Source: Methylococcus sp. UBA6136
Lineage (GTDB): Bacteria > Pseudomonadota > Gammaproteobacteria > Methylococcales > Methylococcaceae
Assembly: GCA_002423305.1 (NCBI GenBank)
Contig: DIVI01000054.1
Coordinates: forward strand, 15,937-62,358
Length of the DNA stretch: 46,422 bases
Direction of reading: 5' to 3'
Every line of letters begins with the position of its first letter. The stretch's first letter is position 1. Positions 8,495 to 29,817 of the stretch are shown here, piece after piece. The notes under the pieces are model-generated. The model was not told the DNA's origin, did no database searches, and worked only from the letters and a program-made list of their open reading frames with translations. Made by a program: the position numbers and the translations under genes.

Positions 8495-9537
8495 GCAAGC
8501 CTATCAATGCCATGGCGATCGGCGGATTTCTGATTGGTGGTATCGCGTTGCTAATCACTGCGCTCCTGGTGTTTGGGGGGGGGCAGTTTTTCAAGCCCAA
8601 GATGCATTGGGTCGTCTATTTCGAAACCTCTCTGAACGGGCTCAATGTCGGTGCGCCGGTTAAGGTGCAGGGGGTGCAGGTGGGCATCGTGAAAGAGATC
8701 GAATTGCAGCTGGACCGGAACAAGCAAAAATTGATGAAGCCGGTGGTGCTGGAAATTGAACCCTGGCGGTTGGCGTCGCCCGATGGTTCTCCCTTTGATC
8801 TATCCCTGATTCCAGGTCGTGAACGGCACAAGGAATTCAAGAAACTGATTGATGCCGGGTTGCGAGCACGGCTTGAGGTGCAAAGCATCCTCACCGGATT
8901 ACTTTATGTCGATCTTGATTTTCATCCGGAACAACCGGTTCGGATGACCGGTTTGGGTTACAAGGATATGCCTGAAATACCCTCCATTACCCCTACGGTG
9001 GATGAGGTCAAGGCAACGCTCGAGGATATCGTCAAAAAAATCAGAGGCATGCCGCTGGATCAAATGGTGGCCGATTTTTCGGCCACGCTCGCGGAGCTGA
9101 GGGCGTTGGTGGGCTCCGAGGATACGCGTAAGTCTCAGGTAGCGTTGACCAATGCACTTCAAACGGCGGAAAGCCTGTTGGGTCGACTCGACAGACAATT
9201 ACCCGGTTTCATCGATCGCATGGACAAAACCATGGGCAGCATCGGGCAGAGTTCGACAGATATCAGTGTGACGGCCAAAACGACCACCGCTCTGGTCCGA
9301 GATCTGCAAGGCAACACGGGGCCGATGATGAAGGCCACCGAACAGACGCTGCTGAAGGCCACGGATGCGCTGGAGTCGACACGAATCGCCGCCGAAAATA
9401 TCGCCGACACCACCGCCGATGACTCCAATCTTCAGGGATCCGTAGCCGAGCTGACCAAGGCAGCACAATCGCTCAGGGTCTTGACGGATTACCTTGAGCG
9501 TCACCCCGATTCACTTTTGTTTGGTAAGAAAGACTGA
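8491..9537 (+). CDS. MCE/MlaD-family substrate-binding protein with a long helical C-terminus
   Basis: The GTG start overlaps the ATPase stop (GTGA), suggesting translational coupling. An N-terminal TM helix is followed by an MCE core (VVYFETSLNGLNVGAPVKVQGVQVGIVKEIEL). The remaining ~200 aa are helical. Confidence 0.85.
   Translation: MSKPINAMAIGGFLIGGIALLITALLVFGGGQFFKPKMHWVVYFETSLNGLNVGAPVKVQGVQVGIVKEIELQLDRNKQKLMKPVVLEIEPWRLASPDGSPFDLSLIPGRERHKEFKKLIDAGLRARLEVQSILTGLLYVDLDFHPEQPVRMTGLGYKDMPEIPSITPTVDEVKATLEDIVKKIRGMPLDQMVADFSATLAELRALVGSEDTRKSQVALTNALQTAESLLGRLDRQLPGFIDRMDKTMGSIGQSSTDISVTAKTTTALVRDLQGNTGPMMKATEQTLLKATDALESTRIAAENIADTTADDSNLQGSVAELTKAAQSLRVLTDYLERHPDSLLFGKKD
8575..8583 (+). 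repeat. G9 homopolymer inside the MCE gene (codons 29-31, Gly-Gly-Gly)
   Basis: Read directly: gtttGGGGGGGGGcag spans the 8580/8581 line break. It is the longest homopolymer I noticed in the window. Confidence 0.9.
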
Positions 9538-10386: not shown

Positions 10387-10959
10387 ATGTCGCTCTTGAG
10401 ATTTCTGCCCGGCATCATCGTGCTGCAGATTTCCACAGCCGCTTTGGTTTACGCGCTGATGCTCCCCGAGGCGCATGAGGCCTTGTGGCTTCCGGTGGCC
10501 ATCCTGGGCGGTGTGGTGAGCCTGCTTTCGGCGTTCTGGTTTGGCTCAATCGCCGACCATGTCAAGAAGGATGCGCTCGCCAATGTCCGCACCCAACATG
10601 CCCGTGAGCGTGAGAAAATCGTGGTGACGGCGGAAATCGACAAGCGTGCGGCGCTGGAGCAGAGTCATGAGCGAATTCTCAAGGAAACTGCCCGTGCACA
10701 GTCCCAGGCTTACTGGCGACTGGGACTCGGCCTCACTGGATTACTGGCTCTGGGCGGAATCATGGTGGCTATCGAGTTCATGACCGTCGGCCTGCTGATC
10801 ATGGCAACGGCCGGGGGCGCATTGGGTGGTTATGTCATGCGTTCACGTCAGGAGACTCGATTTGCCGATCGATCTGATGGGCATCCTCCACTGTTGACCG
10901 CGAGAGAAATCAAGGCGCTAGGGGCGGCTCCGGCAAAAAAGACGCCATTGGAGAAATAA
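10387..10959 (+). CDS. Hypothetical membrane protein (2 TM helices, charged helix, 2 TM helices)
   Basis: The 190-aa ORF starts at ATG. It has hydrophobic pairs at both ends and a central charged segment (KKDALANVRTQHAREREKIVVTAEIDKRAALEQSHERILKETARAQ). I recognise no family. Confidence 0.5.
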   Translation: MSLLRFLPGIIVLQISTAALVYALMLPEAHEALWLPVAILGGVVSLLSAFWFGSIADHVKKDALANVRTQHAREREKIVVTAEIDKRAALEQSHERILKETARAQSQAYWRLGLGLTGLLALGGIMVAIEFMTVGLLIMATAGGALGGYVMRSRQETRFADRSDGHPPLLTAREIKALGAAPAKKTPLEK

Positions 10960-11174: not shown

Positions 11175-13292
11175 ATGAAGTTCGTCAAGCAGCCCCTGCA
11201 ACGGCTCTCCTCGGTGAAGTCGCCCTTCGAATGTTCTCCTGGGTCACCCCTGCCCCAGGGCGTCCATCTTGCCAATGATGGCGTCAATTTCGCCTTATTC
11301 AGCCGCCACGCCACGCGGGTCTGGTTGCTCCTGTTTGATAATGTGGATGCGGTTCATCCGTGCCAGACGATTGAACTAGATCCCAAACACCACAAAACCG
11401 GCGATATCTGGCATATCCGGATTCTCAATGCCGGGCGTGGCCTGGTCTATGCGTATCGGGTAGACGGCCCGTTTCAGCCGGAACGCGGGCATCGGTTTGA
11501 TGCTGCACAAATACTCATCGATCCCTGTGCGACCGCACTGACCAGTCCGAAAAAGCTGGATTTTGGTGTGATTTGTCGGTCTGCGGGGGCAAAAGAACTT
11601 GTTTGCCCGGATGCCCCTGCGATCGTCAAATGTCTGGTGACTGATAACAGCTTTGACTGGGAAGATGACCGACCGCTTTACCACCCCTGGTCGGACCTGG
11701 TGATTTATGAGGCCCATGTTCGTGGGTTGACGCTCTCACCGACGGCTGGCTCCAAGTCCCCGGGAACCTTTTTGGGGGTGATAGACAAGATTCCCTACCT
11801 GAAGGAACTGGGTATTAATGCCATCGAATTCATGCCTCTGCAGGAATTCAATCCGGACGAGGTCACGGCGCGAAATCCCGCGACCGGAGAGCGACTAACC
11901 AATTACTGGGGCTACAACACGATCGCATTTTTCGCCCCTTACGAGGGCTATGGGTCACGGCTCTATCCCGGTTGCCAGATCGATGAGTTCAAGACTATGG
12001 TCAAGGCTCTGCACAAGGCAGGTATCGAGGTGCTGCTGGATGTCGTTTTCAACCATACGGCCGAGGGCAACGAAACCGGGCCGACGTTGAGCTTCCGTGG
12101 TCTCGATAACAGCATCTTCTATATCCTCGAGGACGATAAGCGCTATTACAAGAACTATTCCGGTTGTGGAAATACCCTGAACTGTAATCACCCGGTAGTC
12201 CGTAACTTCATTTTGGAGTGTCTGCGTTACTGGGTAGTTGAAATGCATGTGGATGGATTCCGGTTCGACCTGGCTTCCATTCTGGGGCGGGACCGCGATG
12301 GTAGCCTGGTGGCTAATCCCCCTTTGCTGGAACAGATTGCGGAAGACCCTATCCTGAGGGACGTGAAGCTGATCGCGGAAGCCTGGGATGCGGGTGGGGC
12401 TTATTTGGTCGGCCGGTTTCCTGGGGAGCGCTGGTCGGAGTGGAATGGGCTGTACCGTGATGACATACGCCGCTATTGGCGGGGTGATGCCGGTCTGGCC
12501 GGAGCCTTTGCCAGCCGATTGTGTGGCAGCGCGGATATTTATGAACATAGCGGCAAGGCGCCGGTAAACAGCATCAATTTCGTGACTTGCCATGACGGCT
12601 TTACCCTGCGTGATCTGGTCAGTTACGAACACAAGCACAATCTGGCCAATGGCGAGGATAGCCGTGACGGTTGCAATGACAACTTCAGCGCAAATTATGG
12701 TTGCGAGGGCGACACGTCGGACCCCGCCATTCGGCAGTTGCGCTTGCGACAGATGAAAAACCTGATGGCTACGCTGTTCATGTCGCGCGGTGTGCCGATG
12801 ATGCTGGGCGGGGATGAATTCTGTCGGACCCAGCATGGCAACAACAACGCCTATTGCCAGGATAATGAGGTTTCCTGGTTGGATTGGTCGCTACTCAAGA
12901 AAAATCAGAATTTCTTTCGTTTTGTAAAATCGTTGATTCAATTGCGCCGCCACTATCCGGTTCTATCTAGCGAGCGGTTTTATCGGCCTGAAGAAATTAC
13001 TTGGTTCAACGCCCATGGACATCCGCCTGATTGGCATGGAGATGGGGTGATTGGTTGCCAGATACACCATCAGCAGGGCTCACAAGTGCTTTGTCTGCTT
13101 GCTAATCCCACCCATCAAAGGGCTGCATTTCACCTTCCGATCCCCCCCAAGGGGCGGGACTGGAAGCGGCTGATGGATACAGGAGCAATTGAGCCGTTTG
13201 ATATTTGTGAGCCGAGCAAGAGTGTTCCGCATAAACTGGGTGAGCCAGTCATCCTGTTGGACCGTAGTCTGGTTTTTCTTGTGGCTGACTGA
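11175..13292 (+). CDS. glgX: Glycogen debranching enzyme (isoamylase-type)
   Basis: The 705-aa ORF has GH13 catalytic regions (VLLDVVFNHT, VDGFRFDLAS, IAEAWD, FVTCHDGFTL) and a GlgX-type N-terminal domain. Confidence 0.95.
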   Translation: MKFVKQPLQRLSSVKSPFECSPGSPLPQGVHLANDGVNFALFSRHATRVWLLLFDNVDAVHPCQTIELDPKHHKTGDIWHIRILNAGRGLVYAYRVDGPFQPERGHRFDAAQILIDPCATALTSPKKLDFGVICRSAGAKELVCPDAPAIVKCLVTDNSFDWEDDRPLYHPWSDLVIYEAHVRGLTLSPTAGSKSPGTFLGVIDKIPYLKELGINAIEFMPLQEFNPDEVTARNPATGERLTNYWGYNTIAFFAPYEGYGSRLYPGCQIDEFKTMVKALHKAGIEVLLDVVFNHTAEGNETGPTLSFRGLDNSIFYILEDDKRYYKNYSGCGNTLNCNHPVVRNFILECLRYWVVEMHVDGFRFDLASILGRDRDGSLVANPPLLEQIAEDPILRDVKLIAEAWDAGGAYLVGRFPGERWSEWNGLYRDDIRRYWRGDAGLAGAFASRLCGSADIYEHSGKAPVNSINFVTCHDGFTLRDLVSYEHKHNLANGEDSRDGCNDNFSANYGCEGDTSDPAIRQLRLRQMKNLMATLFMSRGVPMMLGGDEFCRTQHGNNNAYCQDNEVSWLDWSLLKKNQNFFRFVKSLIQLRRHYPVLSSERFYRPEEITWFNAHGHPPDWHGDGVIGCQIHHQQGSQVLCLLANPTHQRAAFHLPIPPKGRDWKRLMDTGAIEPFDICEPSKSVPHKLGEPVILLDRSLVFLVAD

Positions 13293-19311: not shown

Positions 19312-20127
19312 TCACGGGGTGACTGCTTGGCTGGCTGAATAGGTATTTCCAAGGTTGTCCTTGACCTCCGCTTTCAATTCGCCCGCTTTGTCCGGAGCGA
19401 AGTAGAAGCGAAGGTTGGGGTCAGCACTGATGGCAATGTCGGTTTTGGTGGTCATGACCGCTTTTCCCTCAAAACTAACCTTGACTTCGGTCACGTAGTG
19501 AGCGGGTTGCACCATGCGGCTGATCTGATCCATCTGCATGCCGGTAATGTTGGGGTGGCTGATCAGCAGTTGAACCGGATTGGGCTGGCCGAGGGTGGCC
19601 TTGTCGCCGTCGAACCTGAATTTCATTTTTCCCATACGGGCCTTGGCGGCCTCCAGATCGGTGCCTATCGGCGCAGAGCAACCCCCGCTGGCTTTTACAA
19701 AGGCCTTGGCCATGTGGAGTTTGCCATCGTTGGTTTCCGCAATGGCGCGAACATGGGTGTAGGCATTGAATCGCATGCGGGTGGCAATATCGGCCTTGCC
19801 ACTCTCCGGGGTGAAGTCGAATGAAGCCGAAAACGGAACCGGGTTGTTGTCGATGATGACGGTGATGTTCTTGATGAAATTCTCCTTGGTTTGAGGGAAT
19901 TTGCTGGTGATCTGGAGGGGAACCAACGCGGGGTCCTCGGCGCGGTAGGGTGCCGTAATCTCAAGGGTCTGCTGGTCTTCCTCGATGGCGCGATTGGGGA
20001 AGAACTGCTGTTTGAGGGTCGTGTTCCAGGCCGTTTCGTCTTCTCCCTCTGCGCGAAGGGCCTGCGAGGCCAGGAGTAGTCCGGCGATGATCATCAGGAT
20101 TCGGGAAGATGTGACTGGGATTTTCAT
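19312..20127 (-). CDS. Periplasmic SoxY-SoxZ fusion-like carrier protein (quinoprotein-dehydrogenase-associated type)
   Basis: It has a Sec signal peptide. The SoxY-like half ends in KASGGCSAP, and that Cys is the only cysteine in the protein (codon 19678-19680). The C-terminal half is SoxZ-like and beta-rich. Confidence 0.75.
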   Translation of the reverse strand: MKIPVTSSRILMIIAGLLLASQALRAEGEDETAWNTTLKQQFFPNRAIEEDQQTLEITAPYRAEDPALVPLQITSKFPQTKENFIKNITVIIDNNPVPFSASFDFTPESGKADIATRMRFNAYTHVRAIAETNDGKLHMAKAFVKASGGCSAPIGTDLEAAKARMGKMKFRFDGDKATLGQPNPVQLLISHPNITGMQMDQISRMVQPAHYVTEVKVSFEGKAVMTTKTDIAISADPNLRFYFAPDKAGELKAEVKDNLGNTYSASQAVTP

Positions 20128-20181: not shown

Positions 20182-21120
20182 TCAGTCGTCTTCCCATTCC
20201 AGTTCGGCAAACGCAGTCGCAATATTGCGCTTGTGGAAGTCGTCGAACAATTGCCAGTCCGGGCGCATCGACTGGCCGATTTCGTTCATGGCCTGCTCGA
20301 TGGTCTTGCCGGCCTTGATGGCGGCGCGAATCTCGGTTTGCAGGCGTTTCAGATAGTTTTCCTCGCCCATCAGGGCTAACGGCCAGGCGGCAACGACAGG
20401 TCCGTGCCCGGGAACCACCTGCTTGGCTCCGATTTTTCGGAGCTTTTCGATCTCGCTGAGCCAACCGTTTAGGCTACCATCCACCACCGGAACATGTCCC
20501 ATGAAAAGCAGGTCACCGAGCCACAAGGTCTCCGTTTGCGTGTCAAAAATGCTCAGGTCGTTATCCGTATGCGCCGTGGGGTGTGCGGTTACTCGCAGGG
20601 TTCTCCCGCCGAGGTCCAGTTCAAGGGTATCCTTAACGGGTTGGTCGGGTGGCACGAAATGTTCCGGTGACAGGGCAAATCCAAGCTCACTGTGGGCTTT
20701 CTCCCGGTAAAAAGGCGCCCTCAGAGCCATCGCCTGGGTCAGCTTATGATGGCCCACAAAGCTGACACCGACCGCCTTGAAGGCAAGGTTGCCGTAAATG
20801 TGGTCGGGATGGACGTGGGTATTGATGACATAGCAGATGGGGATTTGGCTGTGCTTGCCGATTTGCTGTTTCAGGGCAAACCCTTGATACGGACTTCCTC
20901 CGCTATCAATGACAGCGATGCAGTGCTCACCGATGATGAATCCGATATTGGCAATCTCGCCCCGGTTGTGTTGGTTGGGTAGTTGGTGGACGCCTTGATG
21001 AACGTAGACACCCGTCGCGATCTCCTTCAGGGAGAGTTCCTCGGCGGTGGCTTGGTCCCAACTCATAAGCATGAAAAGAGCAAAGACCCAAATCAGGTAA
21101 CGGGATGCAAGTAAGATCAT
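20182..21120 (-). CDS. Periplasmic metallo-beta-lactamase-fold zinc hydrolase
   Basis: It carries the HxHxDH motif (INTHVHPDHIYGN) plus downstream His/Asp ligands. I chose the ATG at 21120 (MILLASRYLIWVFALFMLMSWDQATA, a signal peptide) over the TTG at 21192 used by the ORF track. It ends 54 nt upstream of the SoxYZ-like gene on the same strand. Confidence 0.8.
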   Translation of the reverse strand: MILLASRYLIWVFALFMLMSWDQATAEELSLKEIATGVYVHQGVHQLPNQHNRGEIANIGFIIGEHCIAVIDSGGSPYQGFALKQQIGKHSQIPICYVINTHVHPDHIYGNLAFKAVGVSFVGHHKLTQAMALRAPFYREKAHSELGFALSPEHFVPPDQPVKDTLELDLGGRTLRVTAHPTAHTDNDLSIFDTQTETLWLGDLLFMGHVPVVDGSLNGWLSEIEKLRKIGAKQVVPGHGPVVAAWPLALMGEENYLKRLQTEIRAAIKAGKTIEQAMNEIGQSMRPDWQLFDDFHKRNIATAFAELEWEDD

Positions 21121-21476
21121 GATGATTTGTGGTTTTTTTGCTGAAAGGGTAGGTGCCAACGGATGAGGATTTTCGGCCCGCCTAACGATCAAATCAATCG
21201 TTTTGCCGTCGGGTGTTACTGCGCCGGTTCAAGGGCAAGGAACGGGAGTGGGGTGAACAAGTTGCACTGGGCCCAACGGTCATTTTTGTTCGTTTTCAGT
21301 CGTTGACTTTTGAGGTGAAATCCTTCAAGTTACGCAACTAAACGGGCATCTTCGGGAGATTTTCCCGTTTTTTGTGTGTCATAAACTTGCTGAAAAAAAC
21401 CACGGCTCATAGTGGCCGTAGGTGTGAATAAGCGTTCGAAAGCGTATTTTTGCCTTATATCTGAGGAGGATAGACG

Positions 21477-23339
21477 ATGAATAACTCTTTGAAGAGTTTG
21501 CTGCTTTCTGCGGCTGTAGCGACCGCCTTGGCAGCGCCGGGCGTCAGTCTCGCTAACGCCGAAATCGAGAAGTTGTCCCATGACCCGGTCAACTGGGCAA
21601 CCTGGGGTGGCGACTACTACGGTACCCGTTTCAGCACGCTGACCCAAATCAACAAGGACAACGCCAAGACCATTCAGCCGATTTGGACGTTCTCTACCGG
21701 TGCCCTGCGTGGTCACGAGGGTGGTCCGCTGGTTGTGAACGGGTTGATCTACATTCACACCGGTTTCCCCCACAAGATCTACGCACTCGACCAGAACACC
21801 CACAGCGTGGTCTGGGAATACGACTATGCACCTGACAAGGGAACCGACCCTGCCCAAGTTATTGGTGTTATGTGCTGTGACGTCGTCAACCGCGGTCTCG
21901 CATACGGCGATGGCAAGATTTTCATGGCTCAGGGTGACGCCACCTTGATCGCACTGGATGCCAAGACTGGCAAAATGGTGTGGAAGGTGAAGAACGGTGA
22001 TCCCAAGGCGGGCATGACCAACACCGCTGCACCGCTGATCGTCAAGGACAAAGTTCTGGTCGGTATCTCCGGTGGAGAATTCGGTGTACGCGGCTTCATG
22101 GCGGCTTACAACGTCAAGGACGGCTCACTGGCATGGAAGACCTACAGCATGGGTCCCGATGCCGATATGAAGATCGATCCGGAAAAGACCATGACCTGGA
22201 CCGACGGCAAGATGGCTCCGGTCGGCAAGGACTCTTCCCTGAAAACCTGGCAGGGTGACCAGTGGAAGATCGGCGGTGGCACCACTTGGGGCTGGACCAG
22301 CTATGACGCTGAAGCCAACCTGATCTACTACGGTTCCGGCAACCCCTCTACCTGGAATCCCGTTCAGCGTCCTGGCGACAACAAATGGTCCATGACCATT
22401 TGGGCGCGTGACGCGGATACGGGTGCGGCCAAGTGGGTTTACCAGATGACCCCGCATGATGAGTGGGATTACGACGGTATCAACGAAATGACCTTGATCG
22501 ACTTGCCCATGAAGGACAAGGACGGTAAGGAACACAGCAAGCTGCTGACTCACTTTGACCGTAACGGCTTTGGCTATACCCTCGACCGTATGACCGGTGA
22601 ACTGCTGGTTGCCGAGAAATTCGACAAGATGGTCAACTGGGCATCGCACGTCGATCCCAAGACCGGTCGACCACAGGTCGTAAGCCAGTACTCCACTCAG
22701 GCGGGTGGCGAAGACCACAATCAGAAGGGCATCTGTCCTTCGGCCATGGGCGCCAAAAACGAGCCTCCGGTCACGTTCTCACCCAAGACCAAGCTGATCT
22801 ACATCCCCGGCAACCACACCTGCATGGACTATGAGCCCTTCCAGGTTGAATATACTGCTGGACAGCCCTACGTCGGTGCTACTCTGAACATCTACCCCGC
22901 CAAGGCCAACGTCAAGACGGGTGAGAAGGAAGAGAAGTTGCATATGGGTTCCTTCACCGCATGGGATCCGGCGACGGGCAAGATTGCTTGGCAGATCGAC
23001 GAGCCTTTCTCCCTGTGGAGTGGCATGGTCTCCACTGCCAGCGACTTGGTCATCTATGGAACCCTGGAAGGTTACCTGAAGGTGCGTGATGCTAATACCG
23101 GTGCCGAACTCTACAAGTTCAAGACCCCGTCCGGGATCATTGGCAATATCAGCACCTGGATGCATGATGGCCGTCAGTACATCGGTGTGCTGTCTGGTAT
23201 CGGTGGCTGGGCCGGCGTCGGTATGGCGGCAGGCCTTGAAGGCGATAGCGAAGGTCTGGGCGCCGTGGGTGCCTACAAGAGCCTTGGCGCTCACACCAAG
23301 CTGGGTGGCGTGTTCACCGTATTTGCTCTGCCCAAGTAA
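21477..23339 (+). CDS. xoxF: PQQ-dependent methanol/ethanol dehydrogenase, XoxF (lanthanide) type
   Basis: The RBS GAGGAGGA lies 6 nt upstream, and there is a signal peptide ending in ANA. It has the vicinal Cys-Cys ([11 protein letters not shown]), repeated Trp-docking propeller motifs, and the DYD triplet ([11 protein letters not shown], codons 22467-22475) where MxaF-type enzymes have D-x-A. Confidence 0.93.
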
Positions 23340-23379
23340 GGGTGGGCATGGGTCCTTGCGGCCCTTAGGCTGAACCGAA

Positions 23380-23420
23380 GAAAGCCCCGACTGAGTCGCT
23401 CAGTCGGGGCTTTCTGTTTT
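23380..23420 (+). terminator. Rho-independent terminator after xoxF
   Basis: GAAAGCCCCGACTGAG tcg CTCAGTCGGGGCTTTC forms a perfect ~16-bp stem followed by TGTTTT. Confidence 0.8.
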
Positions 23421-23464
23421 GTAGGCCCAATTGACTTGGGTTTGATACGCAAAGGAGGTTTTAG

Positions 23465-24328
23465 ATGAAAGCTTTTTCGAAACGGTGTGGAATGACCCTC
23501 GCCATCGGAACGCTCCTGTTATTAGCCGGCCTCGCGGAGGCGGGCGACAAGGCATTCAAGGTTTGCGCCGATCCCAATAATCCGCCGTTCTCGGTCAAGG
23601 ACGGCTCCGGCTATGAAAACAAAATTGCAGAACTGTTTGCCAGCGAACTCGGCCAGACTCTCGAGTACACCTGGTTTCCACAACGCCTCGGATTTATCCG
23701 CAATACCCTAAAGTCGAAGCTGCCGGATTCCGAAGAGTACAAGTGCGATGTGGTGATGGGGGTTCCCACGGGGTTTGAGATGGCGGCGACGACAAAGCCT
23801 TATTATCGTTCGACCTATGTGCTGGTCTATAGGAGAAACGGTCCGCTGCATGGCATCAAGGCCCCTGCAGATATCGACAAGCTCGCCCCGGAGACAAAGG
23901 CCAAATTGCGCATTGCGATGTTTGATGGTGCCCCCGGAACAACCTGGCTGTTGAATCATGGTTTGATTGGTCAGGGGATTCCTTATCAGTCCATGACCGG
24001 TGACGTCACGCAGAATACGGCGCAGATTCTGGCGCGGGATTTCTCCGAAGACAAGATCGACATGGTCGTTATCTGGGGGCCCATGGCAGGTTATCTTGCC
24101 ACGAGCAGCCCCGATGCTTTCGAACTGATTCCCATGAAATCCGAACCCGGACTCCAGTTTGAATTTCCAATGTCCGTGGGCGTCAGAGTGCCCGACAAGC
24201 AACGCAAGCAGGTGCTGGATGATCTGATCGCCAAAAATGGGGAAAAGATCAAAACCATTTTGGAAAGCTACAAAGTCCCGCTGGTCGATGCCAGCGAAGC
24301 AAAAGAGATCAAGAAGGACAACGACTGA
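23465..24328 (+). CDS. xoxJ: MxaJ/XoxJ-like periplasmic substrate-binding protein associated with quinoprotein dehydrogenases
   Basis: It has an AAAGGAGG RBS, a signal peptide, the FKVCADPNNPPFS motif typical of MxaJ/XoxJ, and a type-2 periplasmic binding-protein size. Confidence 0.85.
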   Translation: MKAFSKRCGMTLAIGTLLLLAGLAEAGDKAFKVCADPNNPPFSVKDGSGYENKIAELFASELGQTLEYTWFPQRLGFIRNTLKSKLPDSEEYKCDVVMGVPTGFEMAATTKPYYRSTYVLVYRRNGPLHGIKAPADIDKLAPETKAKLRIAMFDGAPGTTWLLNHGLIGQGIPYQSMTGDVTQNTAQILARDFSEDKIDMVVIWGPMAGYLATSSPDAFELIPMKSEPGLQFEFPMSVGVRVPDKQRKQVLDDLIAKNGEKIKTILESYKVPLVDASEAKEIKKDND

Positions 24329-24369
24329 CCTTTCGGCCCATCGGGCCCATGAACCGGCAGCTCTGATGC

Positions 24370-24400
24370 CCGGTTTTGCTAGGATCAGGTGCAAAACCGG
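24370..24400. terminator. Stem-loop between convergent xoxJ and the DUF2909-like gene (no U-tract)
   Basis: CCGGTTTTGC (24370-24379) pairs perfectly with GCAAAACCGG (24391-24400) around an 11-nt loop. No T-run follows on either strand, so terminator function is uncertain. Confidence 0.4.
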
Positions 24401-24419
24401 CGCCCGCGAGGACGCTTTC

Positions 24420-24674
24420 TTAATGGGCTGGTTTTGAACTGGCTGGTGCTGCAGGGGAGCCGGAGTCAAAGCCGGATTTAAGACCGTGAGGTTTGATGAG
24501 TCCGGTGCTGAAAGCGATTAACAGCGCTATAAAAAGTCCGATAGAAAGAGCGATTCTTAGGGTCAGGGCACGGACGGTGCGAGGGGATCGATCGCGGTCC
24601 TTCAAAAGATAATAGAGGCCGGAGCCGAGACTTCCGATAATGACGAGCAATGCCAATACGATGAATATCTTCAA
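24420..24674 (-). CDS. Twin-transmembrane-helix small protein (DUF2909-like, cytochrome oxidase cluster-associated)
   Basis: Two TM helices flank KDRDRSPRTVRALTLR. I chose the TTG at 24674 (MKIFIVLALL...), which has AAGG 6 nt upstream. The track GTG at 24722 would overlap the divergent SURF1 start. Confidence 0.65.
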   Translation of the reverse strand: MKIFIVLALLVIIGSLGSGLYYLLKDRDRSPRTVRALTLRIALSIGLFIALLIAFSTGLIKPHGLKSGFDSGSPAAPASSKPAH

Positions 24675-24713
24675 AATCTGCCTTTTCGCAGGTGGGTTTG
24701 GGACGCCGGAATA

Positions 24714-25463
24714 ATGAGCCACCGGGCCAGTGGCGGTTCGCCGAATTATAGCTTCAAACCTTCTGGAAAAGCCGTGGGACTATTTGCCGTGGTTTTTCCT
24801 CTATTCATAGTGTTGGGCTTCTGGCAACTGCAGCGCGCAGATGAAAAGACGACGATCAATGCCCTGCGTGATGCGCGGTCGCAGGAGTCCCCCATCGCTC
24901 TGAGGTCTGTCGTCACGGGGGACATTGAGGACCTGCTTTTTCATCCTGTTTTGGTTGAAGGTGAGTACGATAGTGCCCATCAGTTTCTGTTGGATAATCA
25001 GCTCGAGGGGCAGTTGGCGGGCTACCATGTGCTCACGCCCCTCAGGCTCTCAGGAGCGGATAGGGCGGTTCTGATCAACCGTGGCTGGTTGCCGCAGGGT
25101 GCCAGCCGGCAGACTTTGCCGGACATCCATCCGTTGCCTGCGGGAATTACGAGAGTGACGGGCCTGGTCGACAGATTTCACCGGGTCGGCTTTAAGCTTA
25201 AGGGAGCCGATATCCCGACGGTCGGCTGGCCTGCCGTGGTTCAAGTGCCTGATGCGGACAAGATCGCCGACAGGCTCGGTTATCCGGTCCTGCCCTATCA
25301 GGTATTATTGGATTCCGCTGCCCAAGACGGTTACAGTCGGCTTTGGCATGTGGTCCGGCTAGATCCCGGCAAGAACCAGGGCTATGCCTTGCAGTGGTTT
25401 CTATTTGCGGCCCTTGCGGCTTTTTTCTTTGTCCGGCACGGCATCCAATCTGACGTCGGATAA
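24714..25463 (+). CDS. SURF1-family cytochrome oxidase assembly protein
   Basis: It shows GFWQLQRADEK after the N-terminal TM helix, then NRGWLP, then a C-terminal TM helix (YALQWFLFAALAAFFF). This is the SURF1/Shy1 pattern. Confidence 0.85.
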   Translation: MSHRASGGSPNYSFKPSGKAVGLFAVVFPLFIVLGFWQLQRADEKTTINALRDARSQESPIALRSVVTGDIEDLLFHPVLVEGEYDSAHQFLLDNQLEGQLAGYHVLTPLRLSGADRAVLINRGWLPQGASRQTLPDIHPLPAGITRVTGLVDRFHRVGFKLKGADIPTVGWPAVVQVPDADKIADRLGYPVLPYQVLLDSAAQDGYSRLWHVVRLDPGKNQGYALQWFLFAALAAFFFVRHGIQSDVG

Positions 25464-25475
25464 CTTTTTCCAGTT

Positions 25476-26075
25476 ATGACACACGCTTCAAAACCACTCT
25501 GGCAGAGCCGCGCGCTGGTGATTGTGATCGCCCTCACGGCGGTTGTCCCCTTTGTTCTGGCCTGGTACTACGCAAATCACCCCGAGTTGATTGAGAGAAC
25601 CAGCAATTATGGTTCGCTCATTATCCCCACGCGACAACTGAGTCATGATCAACTGATGGCGGCGCCCCTCGGACCGGTGAATGACATGGAGCAGATCAAG
25701 GGCCGTTGGCTTCTGCTGCAGGTGGCGCCCGGTTTCTGTACGACGGTTTGTGTCGAGACATTGCACAAGACTCATCAAGGCTGGCTGATGTTGAACAAGG
25801 AAATGCCCCGGGTGCAGCGGATTTTGCTGGTATCGCCGGAGACCCGATCACGGGAAGTGCCAGAAATAGCCAAGGATGATGCGCTGGTGACGTCGGGCCT
25901 GACCCCTGAGGTGCTGCAGGCGTTGACCAGCGCCATCGGGAAACCCGCCGAAGAAGGCGCCGTGGTTCTCGTCGATCCGCTCGGCAATCTGGTGCTGTGG
26001 TACGACACGGGATTCGACCCTTATAAGATGGTCAGGGATCTCAAGCACCTGCTGAAGGCCTCCCAGATCGGGTGA
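25476..26075 (+). CDS. Membrane-anchored thioredoxin-fold protein with CxxxC (SCO1/SenC-like, putative oxidase biogenesis factor)
   Basis: It has an N-terminal TM anchor, then GRWLLLQVAPGFCTTVCVETLHK (a CxxxC motif in SCO-like context). It sits between SURF1 and ctaA, as in other oxidase assembly clusters. The family assignment is tentative. Confidence 0.45.
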   Translation: MTHASKPLWQSRALVIVIALTAVVPFVLAWYYANHPELIERTSNYGSLIIPTRQLSHDQLMAAPLGPVNDMEQIKGRWLLLQVAPGFCTTVCVETLHKTHQGWLMLNKEMPRVQRILLVSPETRSREVPEIAKDDALVTSGLTPEVLQALTSAIGKPAEEGAVVLVDPLGNLVLWYDTGFDPYKMVRDLKHLLKASQIG

Positions 26076-26150
26076 TTTCGGAATCTCTGCCGATTTTCCA
26101 GTGAAGTGCCCGCAGATGGTTTCAACCCCAATAAAAACCCACTCAATACC

Positions 26151-28193
26151 ATGTTCAGGAAGCTAACGCTTTTCACCCTTTTGATTGCGCTCTGTGTTGT
26201 GCTGATGGGCGCTTACGTGCGGATTTCCGACGCAGGTCTCGGTTGCCCTGACTGGCCTGGCTGCTATGGAAAGCTGATCGTCGATCCTGCTGCAGCAGGC
26301 GGCCACGCAGCGGCGGGTAACTTCGATGCGTCCAAGGCCTGGAAAGAGATGACCCACCGCTACCTGGCGGGTGGATTGGGTGTGCTGGTCCTGTTGCTTG
26401 TCGCACTTTCGTTCCGAGTGCATGAACGGCGAAATCGTGTGATCGGTTGGAGTGTTGGTGCGCTGCTCCTCATCATTTTTCAGGCTCTCCTTGGCATGTG
26501 GGCGGTCAAATACAAGGTTATGCCGATGGTGGTCACGGCCCATCTGATGGCCGGGTTCATCACTCTTTGGCTGCTGTATCGACTTTATATGCTCACGGGT
26601 CCCCAATCTGCGCCGACGGAAAAGGTGACCGGCTTGCTCTGGTTGAGCCGGTTGGGCTTGCTCCTGGTCCTGATGCAAACGGCCCTTGGCGGTTGGGTAT
26701 CCTCCAATTATACGGCTCTGTCATGTCCGGACTTTCCGACGTGCCTTGGAAGCTGGATGCCGGAAATGGATTTCTCTTCGATTGTTTCTGGCATTGTCCA
26801 TCCTGAAAATTATCAGGGCAGCCTGTTACCGCCAGCAGCCCGAGTGGGTATTCACTACCTGCACCGCTTGGGCGCCGTGCTGACGTTCCTGGTTCTTACC
26901 GCGCTCGCGATGGGGGTGACCTCCAATCGCAAGGTGCCGCGACTCAGCAAGCCGGGCTTGTTGCTGAGCTTTCTTTTGCTGGTGCAGATTGGCCTTGGGA
27001 TGGCGTTAGTCTTGCTGCGTCTGCCGGTCGCGATCGCGGTCGCCCATCATGCCGTCGCCGCGCTTCTGTTGTTGCTGGTGGCCCATCTTCATTATTTCCT
27101 GGGGTTGACCGTTCGTCGGGCCGACAAGGTTGTCAGCCCCGCTGAATTCGTTGAGTCGCCCGCCCAGCTGGAAGCCATCCCGCCGGTGACCCTGCCTCCG
27201 CTCACCTTTCCCGAGGTGGCTCCGGAGCCTGTTTCACAAAAGCCGGAAGCCAAGGTGCCCTCGGCCGAAGGGCTTTTTGTCAGGCTCAAGAGTCAGTTAG
27301 GCAAAACCCGGGGGGGGCTGACGGGCTTCCTTGGCACTCTGGCGCTGGGTAAGAAAACTATAGACCGTGAGTTTCTGGATGATCTGGAAGCCCAATTGCT
27401 GACGGCGGATATTGGCGTCACCGCTACCCAGGACATCATCGAACATCTGACCGAAAGCCTGGAGCGCCATGAGCTCGCCGATATTGATGTGGTCAAGGAT
27501 CGGCTCCGCACCTATCTGCATGAAATGATCGCCCCGGTGAGCAGGCCGTTGGTGATCGCTGATGAAACCCGGCCCTTCGTAATCCTGGTCGTGGGTGTCA
27601 ACGGGGTGGGCAAGACCACGACCATCGGCAAGCTGGCCAAACGGCTGCAGAACCAGGGCCATAGCGTGATGCTGGCTGCGGGAGATACGTTCCGCGCGGC
27701 AGCTGTCGAGCAGTTGCAGACCTGGGGTGAGCGCAATCAGGTTCTGGTCATTGCCCAGCATACCGGCGCAGATTCAGCTTCGGTCATCTTTGATGCCCTG
27801 CAGGCGGCGCAGGCGCGAGGTATTGACGTTCTGATCGCCGATACGGCCGGACGGTTGCATAACAAATCCAACCTCATGGAGGAGCTCAGCAAGATCAAGC
27901 GCATCATGGCGCGGCTGGATGAGTCGGCCCCACACGAAGTCCTGTTGGTGCTTGATGCGGGTACGGGACAGAATGCCATCAATCAGGCCCGACAGTTTGG
28001 AGAAGCCGTGGGGCTGACCGGCATTGCGCTGACCAAGCTGGATGGCACGGCCAAGGGAGGCATCATTTTTGCCCTCGGCAAGCAGTTCGGAATACCCATC
28101 CGCTTCATTGGCTTAGGGGAGGGCATTGATGATCTCCAGGATTTCAATGCCGAGCAATTTATTGATGCCCTGTTTACGGATTCCGGGGTCTGA
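26151..28193 (+). CDS. Heme A synthase (CtaA/COX15) fused in frame to signal-recognition-particle receptor FtsY
   Basis: This is one ORF with no stop. The N-terminal half is polytopic COX15 (GAYVRISDAGLGCPDWPGC, EMTHRYLAG, ALSCPDFPTC, His-containing helices). A Pro/Glu/Ala linker spans 27111-27269. A complete FtsY NG domain follows (LFVRLKSQLGKTRGGL, GVNGVGKTTT, DTAGR, TKLD). I chose the ATG at 26151 over the GTG at 26106. Confidence 0.85.
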   Translation: MFRKLTLFTLLIALCVVLMGAYVRISDAGLGCPDWPGCYGKLIVDPAAAGGHAAAGNFDASKAWKEMTHRYLAGGLGVLVLLLVALSFRVHERRNRVIGWSVGALLLIIFQALLGMWAVKYKVMPMVVTAHLMAGFITLWLLYRLYMLTGPQSAPTEKVTGLLWLSRLGLLLVLMQTALGGWVSSNYTALSCPDFPTCLGSWMPEMDFSSIVSGIVHPENYQGSLLPPAARVGIHYLHRLGAVLTFLVLTALAMGVTSNRKVPRLSKPGLLLSFLLLVQIGLGMALVLLRLPVAIAVAHHAVAALLLLLVAHLHYFLGLTVRRADKVVSPAEFVESPAQLEAIPPVTLPPLTFPEVAPEPVSQKPEAKVPSAEGLFVRLKSQLGKTRGGLTGFLGTLALGKKTIDREFLDDLEAQLLTADIGVTATQDIIEHLTESLERHELADIDVVKDRLRTYLHEMIAPVSRPLVIADETRPFVILVVGVNGVGKTTTIGKLAKRLQNQGHSVMLAAGDTFRAAAVEQLQTWGERNQVLVIAQHTGADSASVIFDALQAAQARGIDVLIADTAGRLHNKSNLMEELSKIKRIMARLDESAPHEVLLVLDAGTGQNAINQARQFGEAVGLTGIALTKLDGTAKGGIIFALGKQFGIPIRFIGLGEGIDDLQDFNAEQFIDALFTDSGV

Positions 28194-28500
28194 AATGGGC
28201 GGTGCCGGGTATGTCGCAAATGCTGCTATGGCTCCGGCGATTTCTGTGGTGACTGGCGCCGATTCTGGCCTGATGGGCCGCATCCGCCATGGGTGGCGAA
28301 AGTTTACTGGGGAGCATCGCTGCCTTGGGGAGTGCATTCCAGTATGGCCAGCGCGTTTATGCCGGTGGTCTTGCAGTATGTCCAGGCTTAGGTTGGTGCC
28401 GCAACGGCCGGCCTTTTGAAAGCCACCCTGCTCTGGTCGGGTGACATTGAGGCACTGGATAAACAGCGTCTCAACCTGTCATCCGTCACTTCTCGAGGTT

Positions 28501-29817
28501 TCAGAACCTGGCAGTATTTTCCAGATGAGTGGTCAACATCCGCGCCAGCGATAACTGATCCATCACGCCGGCGCTTTCCCGGGCACTGTGCATCGCCCAC
28601 ATCGGGGCACCGCAATCCATTGTCCTCATGCCCAGGCGGGCCGCGCTCATTGGTCCAATGGTCGAGCCGCATCCCAAATCGCTACGATGTACATAGGTCT
28701 GACTGGGAACGCCCGCCTGACGGCACAACTCCGCAAACCAGGCTTCCGTGAATCCGTCGGTGGCATAGCGCTGATTGCTGTTGATTTTCACGGCGGGTCC
28801 CTGGTTGAGCCGGATGGCGTGGCAGGATTCGTAGGCATTCGGAAAATTGGGGTGAAAGGCATGGGCGGCATCTGCGCTGATCATCAGGCTGTGGGCCAGA
28901 CCACGCTGATATTCGCTCCGCTCCTCTCCGCGACTCTGGGTGATGCGCTCCAGAATGTCCGAGAGAAAGCTGCCATCGGCGCCCTTGTGACTTTCGCTGC
29001 CGATTTCCTCATGATCAAAAAAGGCACAAACCGAGGTATGCGGTGCAGGCTTTGCGTCCAGCAACGCGCAAAGACCGGCGTGGCATGAAGAAAGATTGTC
29101 GATCTGGCTATCTGCCAGAAACTCGCCGGCCGCTCCCCAGAACGCGCCTTTCTGGGTATCGTAGACGTTGAATTCAAAGCTTAAAATGTTCCCCGCCGGG
29201 CAATCGGCTTGTTTGGCGAGCAGAGCACGGAATTGCTGTGCCGGAGGCAGTTCATTTTGCAATTGGCCGAGAATCAGCGGTAGTTCCGTTTGCTTGTTGA
29301 GCTTCAATCCTTCGTCGTTGACCTTGCGGTTCATGTGGATCGCCAGATTCGGCAATCGGGCCAGTGCCTGTTCAAATCGGATCAGCCGGCTTTCGACCCC
29401 ATCCTTGCCGCGCAGGTGCAATTGACCCGCGAGACTGAGATCCCGATCGGTAAAAGTCGCGAGAATGGGCCCCCCGTAAGGCTCGACCCCCAGTCTCGTA
29501 AGCTGTTCGCTGCCATATGCGGCCTTCGGTTTGAGCCTCAGGCCGGGTGAATCCGTATGGGCGCCGATGATGCGAAAGCCGCTGTCGGCCGTAGCCTTCT
29601 CACCGACTTGGAAGGCGATCAGTGACGAGTCGCCACGGATGACGTAATGGCGATCGCCGGAACTAAGTCGCCAGAGTTTCCGTTCATCCAGGCGGGTGTA
29701 GCCATCGACGCGCAGCCGCTGTTCGAGGGTCGCCACGGCATGCCAGGGGCTGGGGCTGGCATCAATGAAATCGAGCAGGTCCTGGGCGTGCTGCTGGTGT
29801 TCTGGGGTGATCTGCAT
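28501..29817 (-). CDS. apeB: M18-family aminopeptidase (aspartyl aminopeptidase-like)
   Basis: The 438-aa ORF reads FIDASPSPWHAV...IIGAHTDSPGLRLKP...FFDHEEIGS...ISADAAHAFHPN...GSTIGP. These are M18 metal-ligand regions. Confidence 0.9.
   Translation of the reverse strand: MQITPEHQQHAQDLLDFIDASPSPWHAVATLEQRLRVDGYTRLDERKLWRLSSGDRHYVIRGDSSLIAFQVGEKATADSGFRIIGAHTDSPGLRLKPKAAYGSEQLTRLGVEPYGGPILATFTDRDLSLAGQLHLRGKDGVESRLIRFEQALARLPNLAIHMNRKVNDEGLKLNKQTELPLILGQLQNELPPAQQFRALLAKQADCPAGNILSFEFNVYDTQKGAFWGAAGEFLADSQIDNLSSCHAGLCALLDAKPAPHTSVCAFFDHEEIGSESHKGADGSFLSDILERITQSRGEERSEYQRGLAHSLMISADAAHAFHPNFPNAYESCHAIRLNQGPAVKINSNQRYATDGFTEAWFAELCRQAGVPSQTYVHRSDLGCGSTIGPMSAARLGMRTMDCGAPMWAMHSARESAGVMDQLSLARMLTTHLENTARF

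Follow-up and report, generated by a model that had tools for sequence, protein, structure and literature searches.

A heme A synthase-FtsY fusion shared across the methanotrophic order Methylococcales

We analysed a 46,422-nucleotide stretch of DNA from Methylococcus sp. UBA6136 (contig DIVI01000054.1, positions 15,937 to 62,358; hereafter the window), in which one gene encodes a predicted heme A synthase (CtaA/COX15) followed by FtsY, the putative receptor of the signal recognition particle (SRP). An earlier note, made from the letters of the window, had described the gene as an in-frame fusion of two complete proteins. The open reading frame (ORF) list and a direct reading of the DNA bear this out, since no in-frame stop codon interrupts the plus strand between 26106 (GTG) or 26151 (ATG) and 28193. 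Orthologues uniformly open with MFRK or MYRK, and ATG 26151 was therefore taken as the start codon. The Pfam COX15-CtaA profile matched residues 4-310 (profile positions 2-321 of 322, 222 bits), SRP54_N matched residues 398-452 and the SRP54 GTPase domain residues 475-675 (259 bits). The NCBIfam ftsY equivalog TIGR00064 scored 364.8 bits for the fused protein, with a cut-off of 260.7 bits. The motifs quoted in the earlier note, GAYVRISDAGLGCPDWPGC, EMTHRY, ALSCPDFPTC, LFVRLKSQLGKTRGGL, GVNGVGKTTT (from 27594), DTAGR and TKLD, were all found in the DNA. Neither the stop codon nor the frameshift that it had considered for the linker was present. An AlphaFold2 model of the protein, built on 56 family members (mean predicted local distance difference test, pLDDT, 81), contained eight confident transmembrane (TM) helices, a disordered linker, a helix at residues 373-385 and the NG fold (Table 1).

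Table 1. Features of the fused gene and of the genes directly upstream, in window positions. ECL, extracytoplasmic loop; dN/dS, ratio of nonsynonymous to synonymous substitution rates; AF2, AlphaFold2.
Feature	Position	Strand	Evidence
Fused ctaA::ftsY coding sequence, 680 aa plus stop codon	26151..28193	+	Single ORF; Pfam and NCBIfam matches; conserved MFRK N-terminus
CtaA N-bundle, TM1-4, aa 1-165, predicted substrate (heme O) side; C32/C38, E66-x-x-H69-R70, H131	26151..26645	+	Residue pattern; dN/dS; AF2
CtaA C-bundle, TM5-8, aa 166-320, predicted heme b side; ECL3 C192/C198, H238-R239, H299	26646..27110	+	Residue invariance; dN/dS; AF2
Linker, aa 321-372, acidic, Pro-rich, disordered; A-domain-like remnant without the basic alphaA1 lipid-binding motif	27111..27266	+	pLDDT; dN/dS; length variation
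alphaN1 membrane-targeting helix at the A/N junction, GLFVRLKSQLGKT; F376 equivalent to E. coli Phe196	27267..27305	+	Alignment to E. coli GFFARLKRSLLKT; AF2 helix 373-385
FtsY NG domain, aa 373-680; GVNGVGKTT (27594-27620), DTAGR (27840-27854), TKLD (28032-28043)	27267..28190	+	E. coli match; Foldseek; invariant G motifs; dN/dS
SURF1, heme a insertion/oxidase assembly factor, two genes upstream of the fusion in the same operon-like array	24714..25463	+	Pfam SURF1, 142.7 bits
PA0111/PP_0108-like redox-active disulfide protein, 199 aa, directly upstream of the fusion	25476..26075	+	NCBIfam NF058629, 50.7 bits, below cut-off

The CtaA half comprises eight TM helices in two four-helix bundles according to the full-length Pfam match and the AF2 model, and the hydropathy profile was concordant. 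In the model, the helices of the N-bundle spanned residues 2-27, 60-87, 94-120 and 125-148, and those of the C-bundle residues 160-185, 228-257, 263-288 and 293-317. Short loops rich in Lys and Arg (MFRK, HERRNR, NRKVPR, RRADK) alternated with two long Cys-bearing loops. This positive-inside pattern predicts that both termini of the CtaA half face the cytoplasm and that FtsY is cytoplasmic, where the earlier note had also placed it. Class-B enzymes are defined by the reference residues H60, H123, H216, H278 and Glu57 of Bacillus subtilis together with the Cys pairs of ECL1 and ECL3. The ECL1 pair of the window protein is C32/C38, and all of its class-B residues (C32, C38, E66, H69, R70, H131, C192, C198, H238, R239, H299) were identical to those of free proteobacterial CtaAs. 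A Foldseek search with the whole model returned FtsY and Ffh only, among the matches listed, and no structural match to the CtaA fold. Since Foldseek gave no structural confirmation of this half, its identity rests on Pfam, on weak sequence matches in PDB and on the residue pattern.

The identity of the FtsY half was supported by several matches. The C-terminal 330 residues, junction helix included, matched E. coli FtsY with 396 bits, and the NG domain was approximately 63% identical to its E. coli counterpart. The NG domain of the model superposed on E. coli FtsY NG+1 (7o9h, 2qy9) with a Foldseek TM-score of 0.93. The GTPase motifs (GxxGxGKT, DTAGR, TKLD) were invariant in the family. Taken with the equivalog score above the cut-off and the alphaN1 helix, the motifs and the fold identify this half as FtsY, the putative SRP receptor. 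The fused gene is presumed to encode the only FtsY of the genome.

The linker between the two halves had been likened to a short FtsY A-domain, and it fits that description in being acidic, Pro-rich and disordered (pLDDT below 50 across residues 325-368). Its length varied between 31 and 62 residues among orthologues. The closest free FtsYs start with a basic stretch (MFGFLKKK, MFTFGRKKK, MFFRRKKK), followed by a short acidic A-domain and then by alphaN1. The fused proteins lacked alphaA1, with CtaA in its place, and retained the acidic, Pro-rich stretch and alphaN1. In E. coli, alphaN1 is a lipid-binding helix with an aromatic residue, Phe196, that is required for function, and alphaA1 is a secondary lipid-binding motif (PMC5533587). 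Across the fused family the Phe196-equivalent position was occupied by F, Y, L or M, and residues L379, T386 and R387 were invariant. A 5-bp GC-rich hairpin followed by TTTTTG (27257-27273, plus strand) was noticed within the codons of the linker end and the alphaN1 start. It is probably a chance occurrence, being one of six terminator-like matches against an expectation of 4.7, a background level.

Relatives of the fused protein were searched for in a set of 5.8 billion proteins. More than 120 full-length relatives were found (54-91% identity), all with both domains and from independent assemblies. Closed genomes were among the sources of these relatives, for instance those of Methylomagnum ishizawai, Methylocaldum marinum, M. 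gracile, Methylococcus sp. EFPC2 and Methylomarinum vadi. The earlier note had asked whether related genomes carry the same fusion or two separate genes. Among GTDB species-representative genomes, 48 had the same complete, uninterrupted fused ORF (632-712 residues, down to 44% identity). Fused loci were recovered from Methylococcaceae, Methylomonas, Methylobacter, Methylomicrobium, Methylomarinum, Methyloprofundus and Methylothermaceae, and from the methanotrophic symbionts of Bathymodiolus mussels and Gigantopelta snails. The fusion thus extends over three families (Methylococcaceae, Methylomonadaceae and Methylothermaceae) and the symbionts, and is a trait of the whole order Methylococcales. 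A Methylococcaceae metagenome-assembled genome (MAG) from Lake Mendota (L001) was 97% identical to the window.

An exhaustive search of 1.84 billion cluster representatives yielded 17 fused clusters at 50% identity. Among the 150 best cluster representatives, neither a CtaA-FtsY fusion nor any other polytopic FtsY fusion was found outside the clade. Several FtsYs of similar length (P0180, P0181, P0184, P0219, P0251, P0238 and P0160) had no CtaA domain, and a hydrophobic segment, a single one, was present only in P0251. Lacking CtaA and having at most one hydrophobic segment, these proteins probably owe their N-terminal extensions to long A-domains. TPR repeats were present in the N-terminal extension of P0195, and two proteins, P0155 and P0249, were longer than 1000 residues. 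In a neighbour-joining tree of NG domains the fused FtsYs formed one clade, with the free FtsYs, including those of Cycloclasticus, outside it. The fusion arose once.

A few loci deviated or required separate inspection. In the draft isolate genome of Methylocucumis oryzae Sn10-6 (L055) the gene was interrupted at approximately 10775-10795, at an A7 homopolymer that lies inside the N domain and not between the domains. This break is probably a sequencing indel and not a true split. Apparent second copies within one MAG (L022/L070, L017/L067, L007/L015) were rejected as such, being the same gene split over contigs or strain variants. In a Methylotetracoccus MAG (L012), positions 9068-9223 encode 56 residues with 75% identity to the FtsY NG domain. 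This fragment, some 2 kb downstream of the fusion, may stem from a local duplication or be the remnant of a pseudogene. Some database labels were doubtful: a 5.3-Mb Methylocaldum replicon was titled "plasmid" (L003), a Methylocaldum-like contig was filed under Methyloversatilis universalis (L005), and a gammaproteobacterial contig was filed under Bordetella parapertussis (L069).

The order of neighbouring genes bears on how the fusion formed. Most fused loci read cox2-cox1-cox11-cox3-SURF1-PA0111-like-[ctaA::ftsY]-ftsE-ftsX(-rpoH). The outgroups had two separate operons, cox...SURF1-PA0111-like-ctaA-ctaB and ftsY-ftsE-ftsX-rpoH. Since the fused gene fills both slots, it is the positional orthologue of ctaA and of ftsY, and in the fusion the final conserved gene of the cox operon runs into the leading gene of ftsYEX. 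SURF1 was syntenic with the fusion in every locus that had an upstream flank, and the PA0111-like gene stood between SURF1 and ctaA in fused and unfused clusters alike. In Cycloclasticus (L063) and two other outgroups (L069, L078) the two operons lay side by side in convergent orientation. L063 and L069 read ftsY>ftsE>ftsX>rpoH> <ctaB<ctaA<...<cox, and ctaB was not detected beside ctaA in L078. A Methylothermaceae locus (L032) read cox...ctaA::ftsY>ftsE>ftsX>rpoH>, with ctaB next in convergent orientation. If the segment that runs from ctaB to ftsY is inverted, the order becomes cox...ctaA>ftsY>ftsE>ftsX>rpoH> <ctaB, which is exactly the order of L032. We infer that a single inversion was the origin; it would account both for the fusion and for the displacement of ctaB. 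A locus with a cox cluster upstream of a free ftsY (L058) was rejected as a direct pre-fusion state, as unrelated genes on both strands lay between the two.

In the window itself the surroundings of the gene have changed. None of cox1-3, cox11, ctaB, ftsEX and rpoH was found in the 46 kb, and the fusion was followed by an M18 peptidase gene and ccmABC. Directly upstream of SURF1 lay genes for a pyrroloquinoline quinone (PQQ) dehydrogenase of the methanol/ethanol family (TIGR03075, 740 bits) and a MoxJ-like periplasmic binding protein (21477-24328, plus strand), and in sister lineages cox2-cox1-cox11-cox3 occupied this slot. Both ancestral flanks of the fused gene have thus been lost in the window's own clade. 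For L001 and L002, which are closely related to the window, the sole downstream ABC-ATPase match coincided with ccmA. ftsE and ftsX were not detected in the fetched loci of L003, L005, L012, L014 and L024, and in L024 (Methylotetracoccus oryzae) rpoH (12102-12947) directly followed the fusion, without ftsEX. The window also carried, on the minus strand, a SoxY-SoxZ fusion in one 271-residue ORF (19312-20127; SoxY at residues 40-150, SoxZ at 176-266), adjoined by a gene of the metallo-beta-lactamase fold (20182-21192). The genome is methanotroph-like.

The two bundles of the CtaA half differed in conservation across the order. Residues C192, C198, H238 and H299 of the C-bundle were invariant in all 48 fused loci and R239 in 47 of them, and all five were invariant in the 56 sequences of alignment A1. 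The N-bundle residues were canonical in 16 of the 48 loci; a further 13 were deficient in the Glu alone or in the Glu and the Arg, and in 19 at least one His or Cys was gone, including eight with the ECL1 loop deleted. The loci named for loss of His or Cys were L023, L025-L027, L029-L031, L034-L038, L040, L044, L049, L050, L052 and L066. According to the NG tree, N-bundle residues were lost at least six times independently. The Pfam COX15-CtaA score tracked this decay, from 250 bits in the free Cycloclasticus CtaA and 222 in the window to 82 in Methyloprofundus and 40 in P0140. Decayed N-bundles had dN/dS values of 0.13-0.26, a constraint expected of membrane helices. Between the window and L002, dN/dS was lowest in NG (0.044), followed by the N-bundle (0.088), the C-bundle (0.129) and the linker (0.45), and the two low CtaA values indicate that both halves of the enzyme are constrained in this lineage. 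The window protein is a predicted heme A synthase, and the purifying selection on both bundles lends only indirect support to its converting heme O to heme A.

We favour, with moderate confidence, the interpretation that the gene encodes a bifunctional polytopic inner-membrane protein in which the CtaA body anchors FtsY, that it originated once through an inversion, and that the anchoring role maintains the fusion. The first 320 residues would form an eight-TM class-B heme A synthase and the last 308 or so the SRP receptor of the cell, joined by a disordered acidic linker of about 50 residues. Because both CtaA termini are predicted to be cytoplasmic, the NG domain would be permanently tethered on the cytoplasmic face. 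The CtaA body would replace the basic alphaA1 motif of free gammaproteobacterial FtsYs, with the acidic stretch and the essential alphaN1 kept. In the ancestor of the methanotrophic Methylococcales, the inversion would have brought ftsYEX-rpoH to the end of the cox operon, immediately after ctaA, and the two reading frames would have merged. Judged from its sequence, the protein of the window lineage is probably a heme A synthase and an SRP receptor in one, and the full-length form, with both activities present, is presumably the functional one. Across the order, the membrane-embedded C-bundle and FtsY would always be kept, and anchoring, not enzymatic coupling, would maintain the fusion. The fusion, the heme-b bundle and FtsY were retained everywhere and the catalytic site was not, which favours a permanent membrane anchor as the maintained function. 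The fusion thus most likely provides the receptor with such an anchor.

Several points weigh against this interpretation. The lineages with decayed N-bundles retain cox1-3, cox11 and SURF1 upstream and must therefore obtain heme a from some source, which could be a second ctaA or a residual activity of the fused protein. If a second ctaA supplies it, the CtaA half of the window protein, too, may be redundant. Invariant heme-b ligands and an extracytoplasmic Cys pair would be superfluous in an inert anchor, so the C-bundle does more than span the membrane. As cox, ftsEX, rpoH and ctaB are not nearby, the operon logic applies to the window only as an ancestral state. The linker could also be cleaved, as E. 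coli FtsY is at its N-terminus (Weiche 2008, as cited in PMC2780400).

The earlier note had proposed that the tether would set SRP-dependent co-translational insertion beside the supply of heme a for subunit I of aa3-type oxidases. In the corresponding rival reading, Cox1 insertion and cofactor supply would be spatially coordinated, and selection would maintain this coupling. The fusion does stay within the cox/SURF1 assembly cluster across the order, the heme-b-binding residues of the C-bundle are invariant everywhere, and the catalytic residues of the window are all intact and constrained. However, the 19 loci without the full set of N-bundle His and Cys residues remain fused, so that selection for an anchor explains retention better than enzymatic coupling does. 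FtsY is moreover a general receptor for all SRP substrates and not for Cox1 alone, the window clade has parted the gene from the cox structural genes, and coupling is not required, as gene order alone yields the fusion. We therefore consider coupling unlikely. An assembly or sequencing error joining two neighbouring genes has a negligible probability and was rejected. Nothing in the window speaks for it, and the one interrupted gene, in the draft genome L055, is broken inside the N domain; the same uninterrupted ORF recurs in many independent assemblies, closed chromosomes among them, and the duplicates within MAGs are accounted for.

Another possibility is that a free FtsY (alphaN1 and NG) is made besides or instead of the long form, through internal initiation or cleavage of the linker. 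A nested start had been suggested at GTG 27255, and both this codon and the GGAAG at 27245-27249, 5 nt upstream, are present as placed, but the start is not conserved. Of 49 orthologues, 13 had a linker devoid of in-frame start codons (ATG, GTG or TTG), and only five combined a start codon with a Shine-Dalgarno core. In the 97%-identical L001 the GTG itself is gone, with QAP in place of KVP. A conserved nested start was rejected on this survey. No promoter-like (sigma-70-like) sites were found in 24300-28600. Cleavage is made easier to envisage by the linker, which is disordered and under relaxed selection and would thus be accessible to proteases. In E. coli, NG+1 alone supports growth and FtsY is cleaved N-terminally (PMC2780400, PMC5533587). 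If free FtsY were the functional form, however, nothing would keep the frame open over some 50 species and a hypervariable linker. Two products seem quite unlikely to us; a minor isoform specific to the window, or some proteolytic release from the linker, may occur.

We regard as similarly doubtful a further reading in which the CtaA module is an active part. With its universally conserved heme-b C-bundle it would turn the SRP receptor into a membrane-fixed platform that is oligomeric and responds to heme or redox state. This innovation, confined to the methanotrophic Methylococcales, would be tied to the building of their massive, protein-packed intracytoplasmic membranes, either through a coupling of targeting to the assembly of respiratory complexes or through concentrated docking of ribosomes on FtsY. 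In the Aquifex heme A synthase, the heme-b-binding C-bundle reportedly forms the core of a trimer. In E. coli, accumulating ribosome-FtsY docking sites induce internal membranes (PMC2173083). The link to intracytoplasmic membranes is speculation; it draws on that observation and on the coincidence of the fused clade with the methanotrophic families, and the latter amounts to one evolutionary event.

If FtsY is indeed anchored in this way, the consequences reach beyond the window. In textbooks FtsY exemplifies a receptor that binds the membrane reversibly, by means of weak lipid-binding helices, and the need for its soluble pool has been debated for decades. A whole order, which includes the main aerobic consumers of methane and several animal symbionts, would have exchanged cycling for a covalent polytopic anchor, and the fusion would be a natural, long-running counterpart of the Zelazny-Bibi experiment. 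The fused proteins form a graded series, from anchors that are intact enzymes to half-decayed pseudo-enzymes that still hold the heme-b site. This series is suited to asking which properties FtsY requires of its anchor, and by what route one function of a bifunctional fusion is lost. There is also a consequence for annotation. ftsY is a standard single-copy phylogenetic marker, and the presence of ctaA is used for inferring the capacity to make heme a. As annotation pipelines name the protein only FtsY, methanotroph genomes may be listed as lacking heme A synthase, and genomes with a dead N-bundle may, the other way round, be credited with the enzyme.

Compared with the free gammaproteobacterial FtsY of the E. 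coli type, the fused protein shares alphaN1 with its aromatic residue, the N domain and all GTPase motifs, and most fused orthologues sit in the ftsY slot at the head of ftsYEX-rpoH. It differs in having an eight-TM enzyme in place of the basic alphaA1 and an A-domain reduced to about 50 residues. With class-B CtaA/COX15 (B. subtilis 6A2J, Aquifex 8AW5) it has in common the full-length Pfam match, the eight TM helices, two Cys pairs, the E-x-x-H-R motif and four His residues, and like free ctaA it is placed after SURF1 and the PA0111-like gene. Unlike these enzymes it carries a C-terminal extension of about 360 residues that encodes FtsY, and N-bundle residues have been lost in many sister lineages. 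Reviews of CtaA diversity include CtaA-CtaB fusions and no FtsY fusion (PMC9145763, PMC8239418). There, too, CtaA is joined to the product of a neighbouring gene, but CtaB is the preceding enzyme of the pathway, whereas FtsY is functionally unrelated and ctaB is displaced in the fused loci. The earlier note knew of no described CtaA-FtsY fusion, and we likewise found none in the literature on FtsY with heme A synthase, COX15, CtaA, methanotrophs or Methylococcus. The architecture is visible in databases, where one annotation reads [quoted passage not shown].

A hydrophobic N-terminal module that tethers NG is shared with the TM-anchored FtsYs, namely 3L-Pf3-FtsY, the Streptomyces lividans protein with its hydrophobic N-terminus, that of Oleiphilus (L060) and eukaryotic SR-alpha, which is held by SR-beta. 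Membrane-tethered FtsY constructs work in vivo (PMC2780400, PMC5533587), and a genuine TM helix occurs in some FtsYs of archaea and Gram-positive bacteria (PMC2780400). Among the 150 best FtsY cluster representatives about 25 had a single predicted N-terminal hydrophobic helix (P0185, P0199, P0204, P0208, P0215, P0236 and P0263 among them), as did L060, so simple TM anchoring of FtsY appears to be common among relatives. The anchor of the fusion differs from all of these in being a complete, conserved, polytopic heme-binding enzyme that is fixed in a whole order, and not a single helix or a laboratory construct. Anchored FtsY was thus already known, and what is new here is a membrane-anchored SRP receptor whose anchor, order-wide, is a conserved polytopic heme enzyme.

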